Position numbers and translations under genes: made by a program
The notes under the pieces: generated by a model
What the model saw: the letters and a program-made list of their open reading frames with translations, nothing else
Told to the model about the DNA's origin: nothing
Databases searched by the model: none
Virus record (IMG/VR): IMGVR_UViG_3300029113_000198
Strand: one strand, 5' to 3'
DNA length: 64,000 bases
Origin: a virus
Shown here: in pieces, positions 12,535 through 58,443 of the stretch
Numbering within the stretch: position 1 is the first letter of the stretch
Layout: the number at the start of each line of letters is the position of its first letter

Positions 12535-12597
12535 AATAGACATTTTATCGTGATTTTCGTTAAAATAATTAACGAAGTATCGTGATATTTCTTCCTC

Positions 12598-12727
12598 CGA
12601 AAACGCCCTGCGTGGGGCTGACAGCCGGGAAAGACCGGCGATATATGCCAAGGTGCTGCAAATGGGAGACAGGGCGAGCCCAAACCTCGCTGTGGAAACA
12701 CATGCGGTTTCGAATACCGTCCTTGGC
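12598..12727 (+). ncRNA. Candidate structured RNA element (GC-rich, nested and pseudoknot-like helices) upstream of the HNH gene
   Basis: ~130 nt at ~58% GC inside a 40% GC phage. Mutually complementary segments: CGAAAACGC(12598-12606)/GCGGTTTCG(12704-12712), GCCGG-gaaaga-CCGGC (12624-12639), GCCAAGG(12647-53)/CCTTGGC(12721-27), GCGAG-cccaaac-CTCGC (12674-90). No plausible ORF. Confidence 0.3.
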
Positions 12728-12759
12728 ACCAGATAATTTTATGAAGAAAGGATGATTGC

Positions 12760-13443
12760 ATGGTTAATAGGGCAGAAGATCATATTGGTGATGTCTTTGA
12801 TTTGTTTGAGGTGATTGATGTTATTCGAGATGAAAATAATATTCCATCTTACAAATGTCGATGTAAAGAATGTGGATGGACAGGGCTAAAAAATATAGCT
12901 CAGGCGAGAGCGGTTAAAGTGTGTCGGCATAAACAATCGAGTGGCGATTATAGAAATTTTTCTACACGGTGGAAAAACAAAAGAATCGGACGAATCTTTC
13001 ATGGAATGAAAGCAAGATGCTATGATGTTGATGATAAAAACTATATAACGTATGGCATGAAAGGAATTTGTGTTTATCAAGAATGGTTGGATAATCCAAA
13101 GTCATTTGAAGAGTGGTCGTTGAAAAATGGATACAAAGATAGTTTGACAATCGATAGAATTGATTCGACAAAAGATTACTGTCCTGATAATTGCAGATGG
13201 ATATCATTGGAAGATAATTCAAAATATAAATCCACAACTCGAATGTTAGAAGTAGATGGTGAAATACATACGGGACGTGATTGGGCGGCAGAATTAGGGC
13301 TTGGAACAAACACGATAAATAAATATGTAAGAAGATACGGAGAAGATAATACAAAACAATTTATAAGAAGAGTATTAAAGGACCCGGATAAAGTGAATTC
13401 TCGACAAGGGAAACAAACTATCTATAATCTTTACATGAACTAA
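12760..13443 (+). CDS. HNH homing endonuclease (free-standing, phage type)
   Basis: GMKARCYDVDDKNYITYGMKGICVYQEWLDNPKSFEEWSLKNGYKDSLTIDRIDSTKDYCPDNCRWISLEDNS is the classic HNH_3 block; Cys-rich N-terminus. Confidence 0.8.
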   Translation: MVNRAEDHIGDVFDLFEVIDVIRDENNIPSYKCRCKECGWTGLKNIAQARAVKVCRHKQSSGDYRNFSTRWKNKRIGRIFHGMKARCYDVDDKNYITYGMKGICVYQEWLDNPKSFEEWSLKNGYKDSLTIDRIDSTKDYCPDNCRWISLEDNSKYKSTTRMLEVDGEIHTGRDWAAELGLGTNTINKYVRRYGEDNTKQFIRRVLKDPDKVNSRQGKQTIYNLYMN

Positions 13444-13664: not shown

Positions 13665-13751
13665 CGAGGATTCGCCAAGTTGGTAAGGCAGCGGAATTTG
13701 ACTCCGCCAGCGCTGAACAAGCGGTCACAGGTTCGAGTCCTGTATCCTCGG
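13665..13751 (+). tRNA. Unusual type-II tRNA: Ser-like body (long variable arm, G discriminator) with anticodon UUG
   Basis: Acceptor CGAGGAT/ATCCTCG perfect; D stem GCC/GGC (3 bp); anticodon arm GCGGA-ATTTGAC-TCCGC; 19-nt variable arm CAGCGCTGAACAAGCGGTC; T arm ACAGG-TTCGAGT-CCTGT; discriminator G. Confidence 0.5.
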
Positions 13752-13758
13752 CTTATAT

Positions 13759-14018: not shown

Positions 14019-14207
14019 ATCTCGTATGGGTAGGATTTTTAGCGGTCAAATCCGGCTGCGCCTGTGCGAGATACCACCCCGAAAGGGGCGAGATATAGGA
14101 AATGTGCATCACTGTTATTCCTTCCTCGTCTATATGATATAGATGCAATAGTGTTTTATAAGGAAGGTGCCCAGTTGAATAGTTGCAGCTGTTTAACTGG
14201 TTTTTAT

Positions 14208-58359: not shown

Positions 58360-58443
58360 GCCGCTGTGGTGAAATTGGCAGACACGAGGGACTTAAAATC
58401 CCTTTCTGGAGACAGAGTACGGGTTCGACCCCCGTCGGCGGCA
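58360..58443 (+). tRNA. Chromosomal tRNA-Leu (anticodon UAA), type II; probable integration target of the downstream element
   Basis: Acceptor GCCGCTG/CGGCGGC, anticodon arm AGGGA-CTTAAAA-TCCCT, variable arm TCTG-gaga-CAGA, T arm ACGGG-TTCGACC-CCCGT, discriminator A. Confidence 0.7.

Follow-up and report, generated by a model that had tools for sequence, protein, structure and literature searches.

A leader hairpin found in phages of many hosts precedes an atypical tRNA-Leu(CAA) gene at the head of a phage tRNA island

Introduction

The put RNA of phage HK022, about 70 nucleotides (nt) long, consists of a 73-nt V-shaped pair of long stem-loops with a triplex, and binds the β′ zinc-binding domain (PMC9378689). 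In gut phages, the theta ribozymes, which are minimal ribozymes resembling that of hepatitis delta virus (HDV) and adopt the HDV double-pseudoknot fold, lie beside transfer RNA (tRNA) genes that mostly lack an encoded CCA (PMC10879173). Their position at tRNA ends suggests that phages carry cis modules for tRNA maturation. It has also been proposed that some phage tRNAs carry anticodon-loop changes that protect them against host anticodon nucleases (van den Berg et al. 2023, PMC10264068; see also PMC13056530). The locus described here bears on these subjects. It lies in a stretch of viral DNA of 64,000 nt (IMG/VR record IMGVR_UViG_3300029113_000198), the whole of which is called the window below, and consists of a leader with two small hairpins followed by the gene of an atypical tRNA-Leu(CAA), at the head of a tRNA island. 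The second hairpin belongs to a motif that recurs in phages of very different bacteria. As to the phage itself, the DnaE-type polymerase of the window has its nearest counterparts among polymerases of Firmicutes phages, at 30-35% identity.

The leader-tRNA unit

The stretch 12590-12734, lying between the end of a gene for 127 amino acids (aa; 12534) and the start of the next open reading frame (ORF; 12760), is distinguished by its composition. Its GC content reaches 0.58, whereas the window as a whole has 0.43 and the HNH endonuclease gene that follows has 0.34. An earlier reading of the sequence, hereafter the original prediction, had rightly pointed out this GC-rich stretch and its lack of any credible ORF, only short overlapping ones being present on both strands; it had, however, taken the region for a single structured element of about 130 nt. 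Two adjacent units are found instead, a 57-nt leader and an 88-nt tRNA (Table 1). Three of the four complementary pairs listed at that time prove to be ordinary helices of these two units: GCCAAGG (12647-12653) and CCTTGGC (12724-12730) form the acceptor stem, GCGAG-CCCAAAC-CTCGC (12674-12690) is the anticodon arm, and GCCGG-GAAAGA-CCGGC is a leader hairpin. The remaining long-range pair, CGAAAACGC/GCGGTTTCG, matches at just 8 of 9 positions, with one A-G mismatch, and more pairs are lost in relatives, where CGAAAATGC or CAAAAATGC faces an invariant partner. This was the sole crossing pair, so that once it is dropped no interleaving helices are left and the pseudoknot that had been proposed is not required. 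Folding energy is uninformative here, since the minimum-free-energy fold of 12590-12740 has a z-score of -0.91 and 35 of 200 shuffled sequences fold equally well. The real helices are established by covariation in relatives, which is seen in both the tRNA and the leader.

Table 1. Positions of the features of the leader-tRNA unit and of its immediate neighbours in the window.
Feature	Coordinates	Strand	Basis or remark
Sigma-70-like promoter match, TAGACA-18 nt-TAAAAT	12537-12566	+	Consensus scan only, 10 of 12 positions
Insert of about 43 nt with palindrome TTCGTTAA-AATAA-TTAACGAA and repeats TATCGTGAT	12547-12589 (approximate)	+	Comparison of relatives
Pyrimidine tract TCTTCCTCC, start of the conserved gut-phage leader	12590-12598	+	Kept in three upstream contexts
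Leader hairpin 1, GCCC-TGCGTG-GGGC	12605-12618	+	Minimum-free-energy fold; compensated variants
Core motif: TGACA (12619-12623), hairpin 2 GCCGG-GAAAGA-CCGGC (12624-12639) and flanking G	12619-12640	+	Model R1; covariation
AU-rich single-stranded linker GATATAT, predicted leader for ribonuclease P (RNase P)	12640-12646	+	Between hairpin 2 and tRNA +1
Atypical class-II tRNA-Leu(CAA) gene, A73, encoded CCA (12732-12734)	12647-12734	+	ARAGORN; covariation
HNH endonuclease gene (phrog_3377, E = 1.2e-37)	12760-13443	+	Variable occupant between tRNA-Leu(CAA) and the remaining island

ARAGORN calls a tRNA-Leu(CAA) at 12647-12731, after which the CCA is genome-encoded. The sequence has all parts of a cloverleaf, with an acceptor stem of 7 base pairs (bp), a D arm, a 5-bp anticodon stem and 7-nt loop, a long variable arm of 13 nt, and a 5-bp T stem and 7-nt loop. 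The nucleotides engaged in tertiary interactions can also be read from the sequence (U8, A14, G18G19, A21, A15/U48 and the T loop UUCGAAU). The A73 discriminator, a leucine identity element for bacterial leucyl-tRNA synthetase, is present together with the 3′ CCA (12731-12734). Other features, namely U33, G53-C61 and G10, are near-universal in tRNAs. At these positions the tRNA departs from the rule: its anticodon loop CCCAAAC is devoid of uridine (C32, C33, A37 and C38), and U53-A61 and C10-G25 are found in place of the other two. The Rfam tRNA model RF00005 gives no match at E ≤ 10 even with a search space of 166 nt, and its 29-bit gathering threshold is not reached, while for the other six tRNAs of the island the same model gives 42-61 bits.

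Related loci were collected by four scans of viral contigs, using the anticodon arm, the leader hairpin, the T arm and the extended leader. Among the 17 close relatives, which are contigs of 45-141 kb from nearly always the same metagenome dataset, a conserved block starts identically with TTTCTTCCTCC behind three unrelated upstream sequences (contexts A, B and C, the first being that of the window) and ends exactly at CCA, with four unrelated sequences downstream. In these relatives identity amounts to 98.8-100% for the tRNA, a figure inflated by their retrieval through an exact match to the anticodon arm, to 91-96% for the leader and to 86-94% for the protein gene next to it. The same leader stands before at least five different tRNA-Leu(CAA) bodies, and before tRNA-Pro; of the 123 extended leaders found by a scan anchored on the pyrimidine tract, 82 precede a tRNA-Leu(CAA) and 39 a tRNA-Pro(UGG). 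Type 2 of these bodies (L148, L157, L169 and others) differs from that of the window, type 1, in the acceptor, anticodon and variable stems, all fully compensated, and retains the CCCAAAC loop, with its C33, and U53-A61. The type 2 tRNA of L148 is likewise not matched by the Rfam tRNA model. Further bodies (L045, L040, L035, L209 and others) have U33, also seen in L183, and mostly G53-C61, with A53-U61 in L035. Two of them were searched with the Rfam model, and these canonical sister tRNA-Leu(CAA) genes score 53 bits (L045) and 51 bits (L040).

Among 22 distinct tRNA-Leu(CAA) sequences that follow the leader, canonical pairs fill 371 of the 374 cells at 17 stem positions, and each position displays two to four pair types, which shows the cloverleaf to be real. 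Positions 12647-12734 encode a class-II tRNA-Leu(CAA) whose cloverleaf is maintained by compensatory change. A degenerate tRNA-like element had been among the original candidates. The tRNA is retained, the degeneracy is not: its deviations recur in a second body whose stems are fully compensated, so that it is better described as atypical. Its U-free loop, its U53-A61 pair and its lack of G10 look selected rather than decayed.

The most economical reading would be a working tRNA for UUG, which represents 18.6% of the leucine codons in 18 ORFs of the window, with a U-free loop that would make it a poor substrate for host anticodon-loop nucleases. It is improbable, though worth considering, that this part of the locus is not used for translation, being either a decoy that soaks up a host nuclease or another enzyme directed at tRNAs, or a pseudogene kept by linkage. 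The three deviations just described would suit such a role, as would the fact that types 1 and 2 both escape the Rfam model when sister genes at the same position reach 51-53 bits; moreover, the window also encodes a tRNA-Leu(UAA), which can already read UUG. Against this, every stem change between types 1 and 2 is matched by a compensating one, the tertiary nucleotides, A73 and CCA are all kept, and T arms with U53-A61 are also found in further viral tRNAs of several isotypes (Gln, Lys, Glu, Arg and Ala). A decaying pseudogene is excluded by the identity of the tRNA among close relatives, higher than that of the neighbouring gene.

The core motif of the leader

Conservation and covariation indicate that 12590-12646 is a leader with two small hairpins, the second of which is a copy of a widespread, strand-specific phage motif. 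A cis-regulatory leader, another of the original candidates, came close to this answer, the 5′ third of the stretch being a conserved structured leader. Hairpin 1 varies among relatives in a compensated manner (GCCT/AGGC, GCTC/GAGC, GCTCA/TGAGC, CTGC-GCAA-GCAG, CTGT-GTAA-ACAG and CCTG/CAGG), with C-to-T changes that preserve G·U pairs. The pyrimidine tract is missing from a variant leader, that of L110 and L163. The linker measures 5-8 nt among close relatives (GATAT, AATAT, AATATAT and AATTATAT).

The consensus of the core motif, 22 nt in all, is UGRCR, a stem of four variable base pairs closed by G-C, the loop GARAGA (either GAAAGA or GAGAGA) and a final A. A scan of 2.7 Mb of fetched loci that left the stem free (TGRCR-N5-GARAGA-N5) revealed at least ten compensated stem variants, with the closing G-C pair and the loop unchanged. 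The fully paired stems comprise GCCGG/CCGGC (225 copies), AAUCG/CGGUU (29), GCUCG/CGAGC (19), UGCGG/CCGCA (5), GCCCG/CGGGC (5), GUCCG/CGGGC (4), AAUCG/CGAUU (3), UGCGG/CUGCA (2), GUCUG/CAGAC (1) and GACCG/CGGUC (1), and the pairs that depart from Watson-Crick geometry are G·U in the + sense. In alignment A1, 97.5% of the cells pair, a value biased upward by the choice of copies with at least four of the five pairs; both partners change in four of the five pairs, and the covariation score of 0.733, where shuffles give 0.231, is reached by none of 500 shuffles. Outside the 22 nt, no flanking column is more than 47% conserved, except for an A (79%) after the stem, replaced by G in the window. Covariance model R1 detects a single copy in the window (12615-12643, 40.8 bits, E = 5e-8), which disposes of a promoter or terminator motif repeated within the phage.

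Hundreds of viral contigs contain the motif, in which the stem covaries while the loop is invariant. Its 16-nt hairpin occurs at least 127 times; among the matches listed, the 5′ flank is TGACA in 81 and TGGCA in 17, so that nearly all can be regarded as true copies. In a collection of isolated phages searched with blastn, a core of 21-24 nt is 100% identical in phages of unrelated hosts: coliphage mEp390, Acinetobacter phage Alexa, Stenotrophomonas phages Pokken and BUCT708, Pseudomonas phage Medea1, Cronobacter phage ESP2949-1 and Klebsiella phage P7641. The match is nearly exact in Xanthomonas phage DIBBI, where the motif precedes a tRNA-Ser by 10 nt, and in cyanophages. A 32-nt core query was matched in 5 of 5,426 complete E. 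coli genomes, and the extended mEp390-type sequence was present in one E. coli genome. The extended leader pattern gave only chance matches in 185,579 reference genomes, a scan that did not include the 22-nt core alone, and a host or prophage origin was rejected on these grounds. No family of Rfam 15 matches the motif, and its 16-mer was not found in the literature searched; it appears to be undescribed so far.

Some 70 nt upstream of the motif are also conserved from E. coli to Xanthomonas phages (mEp390, L324, at 1430-1500; DIBBI, L331; L120, L123 and L333). They read …ATGCAAACGGGAAAGG.CGTTAAA…GGCCGATGAGTTCAA.TGGCAATAAAGAAC and overlap an annotated 'hypothetical protein' in mEp390.

Other ways of accounting for the leader were tried and set aside. 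A small leader ORF begins with ATG in relatives (GAAAATGCC) but with ACG in the window, and its frame, read by eye, continues across the tRNA. A minus-strand gene behind GGAGGAAG comes down to a two-codon ORF in contexts B and C. Mimicry of the P4/CR-I strand of RNase P RNA was suggested by the likeness of GGAAAGACCGG to GGAAAGUCCGG (10 of 11 positions), but 48 of 500 rnpB shuffles do equally well, and this is a weak lead only. A closing helix directly after the motif is modestly enriched (38%, against 22% at random positions).

Position of the motif copies

ARAGORN finds the start of a tRNA 3-8 nt downstream of 155 of 254 motif copies, with a peak at 5-6 nt, and a tRNA within 500 nt upstream of just 14 of them. 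A non-redundant set of 106 copies, in which bias is weaker, gives the following shares: a tRNA comes after the motif in 20%, a T-arm-bearing tRNA-like RNA missed by ARAGORN in 20% (about 3% by chance), a ribosome-binding site and start codon in 19% and an intrinsic terminator in 7%, while 35% are unclassified. In the viral tRNA array of L032 the motif occurs four times, and a tRNA or tRNA-like sequence begins a few nt after every copy. In nine annotated isolates the motif is intergenic and unannotated, and in eight of them it shares the strand of the gene downstream. Two E. coli prophages, L335 and L336, have three copies each in the stretch that separates an early promoter from the first early-left gene, with a terminator among them. 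The order of elements in this leader (1258-1680 in L335) is sigma-70-like promoter, motif, motif, intrinsic terminator, motif, hairpin and first gene, and a 9-mer, GGAAAGACC, recurs there outside any hairpin.

The contexts of individual copies are varied. Gut-phage relatives without the HNH gene (L040 at 2440, L039, L057 and L219) have a second copy, TGGCA-AATCG-GAAAGA-CGGTT, about 26 nt before tRNA-Leu(UAA); there is none in the window. In the environmental contigs L032, L050, L063, L098 and L107, the sequences just after the motif have an acceptor stem and a T arm separated by 40-80 extra nt, and ARAGORN does not call them; these could be intron-containing tRNAs or small RNAs resembling transfer-messenger RNA (tmRNA). 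In phage Alexa (L325), a hammerhead-like core, ACCCAT-CTGACGAG-CTTG..CAAG-CGAAAC-CGCAAG-GTC-ATGGG, begins 6 nt after the motif (1527-1575), where Rfam reports no hammerhead at E ≤ 0.1, and a degenerate second copy of the motif lies about 200 nt downstream. Phage ESP2949-1 (L328) corresponds at 1224-1530 to CRES7 (L332) with an insert of about 300 nt directly after the motif. This insert has a frame resembling a tmRNA tag (ANDDLMLMAA, then a stop) and a weak match to the permuted-tmRNA model, at 24.9 bits.

Possible roles of the leader

The explanation that we favour, with close to even confidence, is that the region is a transcribed leader-tRNA unit heading the phage tRNA island, in which a leader serving as an RNase P module precedes a working tRNA. 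The unit would be co-transcribed with the upstream gene, or else transcribed from the promoter-like site of Table 1. The hairpin would act as an insulator that prevents the leader from pairing with the tRNA body, so that 5-8 nt of AU-rich single strand would be offered to RNase P, with a predicted cut at 12646/12647; the upstream RNA thus released would be protected at its 3′ end, since the tail beyond its terminal hairpin would not be long enough for 3′ exonucleases. The constancy of the GAAAGA loop and of the UGACA flank implies recognition by a sequence-specific partner, which would be common to many bacteria. The motif itself is a strand-specific hairpin with an invariant loop and flank, mostly situated at a fixed short distance 5′ of the expected RNase P cleavage site. 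That it acts at the RNA level as a portable 5′ module for RNase P substrates is, taken by itself, a more tentative proposal. Put more broadly, and with rather less than even confidence, the 22-nt unit may represent a new, widespread class of phage cis-acting RNA. Its target would be RNase P or RNA polymerase, a machine shared by several phyla, and it would function as a portable 5′ adaptor for tRNAs, for tRNA-like or tmRNA-like RNAs and for some operon leaders, the tRNA-Leu of the window being one cargo, made nuclease-proof by its U-free loop.

Several observations weigh against the RNase P module and the working tRNA. The link with RNase P is only positional, and alignment A1 was drawn from preselected copies. 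The copies that precede a ribosome-binding site and start codon or a terminator, together with the unclassified ones, are not explained by pure tRNA processing; the three E. coli prophage copies sit in an early-operon leader between promoter and terminators, a position typical of antitermination sites. A purely insulating hairpin would moreover need no invariant loop and flank. As regards the tRNA, the retrieval of close relatives by an exact anticodon arm inflates its apparent conservation, and the failure of the Rfam model, together with the missing U33, means that it may be a decoy or unused in translation.

The main rival, which we consider unlikely without dismissing it, is a control of transcription elongation comparable to lambda nut/boxB or HK022 put. 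Either by itself or together with a Nus-type or phage factor, the hairpin in the nascent RNA would render the polymerase resistant to Rho and to intrinsic terminators over untranslated structured stretches, such as tRNA islands, noncoding RNAs and long operon leaders. The arrangement in L335 and L336, where a promoter (TTGACC-17-TAATAT) precedes the three motifs and their interleaved terminator, places the motif where nutL and putL lie (see PMC9378689 for put). Some environmental copies are found 10-15 nt before a terminator, several others where late operons begin, ahead of small-terminase genes, and the tRNA island of the window itself contains a terminator-like hairpin (14171-14200). The 5-bp GC stem and purine loop GAAAGA also resemble lambda boxB, which is GCCCU-GAAAA/GAAGA-AGGGC, and a target as conserved as RNA polymerase would explain why the sequence is identical across host phyla. 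However, antitermination has no need for the tight spacing of 3-8 nt to tRNA +1, and a single copy at the head of an array would suffice where L032 has four. No boxA consensus is visible, and no N-like gene was identified, although no search was aimed at one. HK022 has no record among the blastn matches to the motif in the phage collection, and put is a very different RNA, whose architecture led us to reject an identity with the motif. A role of the motif at the DNA level, as a recombination linker or single-strand hairpin site for the exchange of cassettes (tRNAs, small RNAs, homing endonucleases or small genes), seems quite improbable. The cargo does switch immediately 3′ of the motif, both in the tRNA-Leu(CAA) and tRNA-Pro series and in the ESP2949-1 insert; both flanks of the window unit are mosaic, and the identity of the motif in phages of distant hosts suggests horizontal spread. 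Yet homologous recombination gives rise to mosaicism at any conserved sequence, whatever its function, no recombinase is consistently linked to the motif, and its orientation follows the downstream gene in nearly all annotated isolates. Pairing maintained through G·U in the + sense only is also unlike a double-stranded site, though a single-stranded DNA hairpin would show it.

Two further explanations can be granted very little. In a sigma-70-type promoter, TGACA would be the -35 element, the hairpin the spacer of 16-18 nt and the AT-rich linker the -10 element. The sequence cTGACA agrees with TTGACA at 5 of 6 positions, -10-like linkers are seen in tRNA contexts (TATAAC in tRNA-Pro leaders, AATTAT before type 2), and AAGAAT was flagged by the scan in L335. 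Transcription would nevertheless be predicted to start at positions +5 to +8 of the tRNA; just one A is conserved 3′ of the hairpin, so that the -10 position is not, and a promoter spacer has no reason to contain covarying stems. The first L335 copy is, besides, about 45 nt downstream of a much better promoter, and the scan of the window did not flag the motif. Less credible still is the view with which the analysis of this region began, that of one pseudoknotted noncoding RNA of about 130 nt, a self-cleaving ribozyme or an intron remnant linked to the HNH gene. This view is largely refuted. It could draw on the GC-rich character and the several complementary segments of the stretch, and the core seen in Alexa suggests that ribozymes do occur beside the motif. 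All helices are, however, accounted for by the tRNA and the two leader hairpins, the crossing pair finds no support in relatives, and the fold is not more stable than those of shuffled sequences. A cmscan search of the region against Rfam gave nothing credible at E ≤ 10, and in particular no ribozyme or intron family; hammerhead, twister, pistol and hatchet ribozymes are without match at this threshold in 12580-12745, and the leader CUGACA lacks G8 and A9 of the hammerhead core CUGANGA. A theta or other HDV-like ribozyme, which cleaves within 5 nt of a tRNA 3′ end and has a catalytic C, was rejected because a tRNA upstream of the motif is rare and no HDV-type Rfam match was obtained. Lastly, most relatives lack the HNH gene.

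Surroundings of the unit

The HNH gene follows tRNA-Leu(CAA) only in the window and in L008, L013 and L015, that is, in just 3 of the 17 closest relatives, and the conserved block stops before it, at CCA. The functional tie that had been supposed is thus not supported, and the gene is to be seen as a chance neighbour that does not belong to the element. A link of the motif to one HNH family was also rejected, since the HNH protein of the window is unrelated to that of Synechococcus phage MinM2.

On the 5′ side, the perfect AT-rich palindrome TTCGTTAA-aataa-TTAACGAA (12556-12576) and the direct repeats TATCGTGAT that flank it (12546-12554 and 12578-12586) are present as first described. They mark an insert present in upstream context A (window, L005, L006, L008, L011-L015, L017 and L018) and absent from contexts B and C, which read TAAGACATTTT directly joined to CTTCCTCC. 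The insert creates the promoter-like site, which begins just past the stop codon of the 127-aa gene and has its -10 element inside the palindrome.

Within the remainder of the island, the gene called tRNA-Gln(UUG) at 13665-13752 measures 88 nt; with its G73 and its long variable arm it has a class-II body (Ser/Leu-like), here joined to a glutamine anticodon; it may be a recoding or mis-incorporating tRNA. The same slot is occupied by an ordinary tRNA-Gln of 72-75 nt in L002, L004 and L005 and by the long form in L008, L012, L014 and L016. Counting this class-II 'Gln', five of the eight tRNAs of the window have long variable arms. The terminator-like hairpin of the island (13 pairs, then a T run) separates tRNA-Gly from tRNA-Met, and a second tRNA-Leu(UAA) is found far from the island, at 58360-58443.

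Significance and comparison with known systems

Since most of the flagged stretch is a tRNA gene without a match to the Rfam tRNA model, tRNA counts in these gut phages may be too low. The two independently compensated tRNAs with U-free loops provide a concrete test case for the resistance of phage tRNAs to anticodon nucleases. The interesting part of the locus is the leader motif rather than the tRNA: this hairpin is nearly identical across E. coli, Acinetobacter, Stenotrophomonas, Pseudomonas, Cronobacter, Xanthomonas, cyanobacterial and human-gut phages. Should it direct RNA processing or control the polymerase by way of a universal host machine, phage biology and RNA engineering would gain a compact part that does not depend on the host.

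Like the phage tRNAs discussed by van den Berg et al. (PMC10264068), the tRNA described here belongs to an island and has non-canonical loop positions outside the anticodon, kept across divergent copies. It differs in that all loop uridines are gone, the near-universal U33 included, and in the additional U53-A61 pair and loss of G10, enough to bring it below the Rfam tRNA model; its nuclease resistance is an inference.

The leader motif has several partial counterparts. It resembles lambda nut and the antitermination leaders of rrn operons as a small GC-stem hairpin with a purine-rich G-A-R-A loop in a nascent untranslated leader, which in the E. coli prophages lies between early promoter and terminators. 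In the window it lies between a stop codon and a tRNA. Its loop is, however, a hexaloop, GAAAGA or GAGAGA, where lambda boxB has a GNRA-like pentaloop, and its 5′ flank is UGACA (UGRCR) in place of boxA (CGCUCUUA-like). Unlike nut, it is also found in phages of Firmicutes, cyanobacteria and many Proteobacteria, it usually lies 5-6 nt from the 5′ end of a tRNA, and it can be repeated before each tRNA. The PeSL (promoter-early stem-loop) cassettes that Arbiol et al. described in 2010 are reportedly confined to T4-like phages, and are said to combine a promoter with a terminator-like stem-loop. The motif resembles them in that both are short, conserved stem-loops of intergenic regions that border variable gene cassettes; unlike them, it crosses phage families and host phyla, and has neither a conserved promoter nor a U tract. 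HK022 put offers the parallel of a nascent cis-acting RNA in an early phage leader whose action on a universal host machine may require no phage protein, the unit seen here being much simpler, at 22 nt with 5-bp stems. With the theta ribozymes, finally, the motif has in common that a small conserved RNA element is coupled to tRNA ends in gut Caudoviricetes. It differs from them in being a simple hairpin placed 5′ of the tRNA, which in the window encodes its own CCA, and, if the role favoured here is correct, this 5′ motif would complement the theta ribozymes that lie at tRNA 3′ ends.

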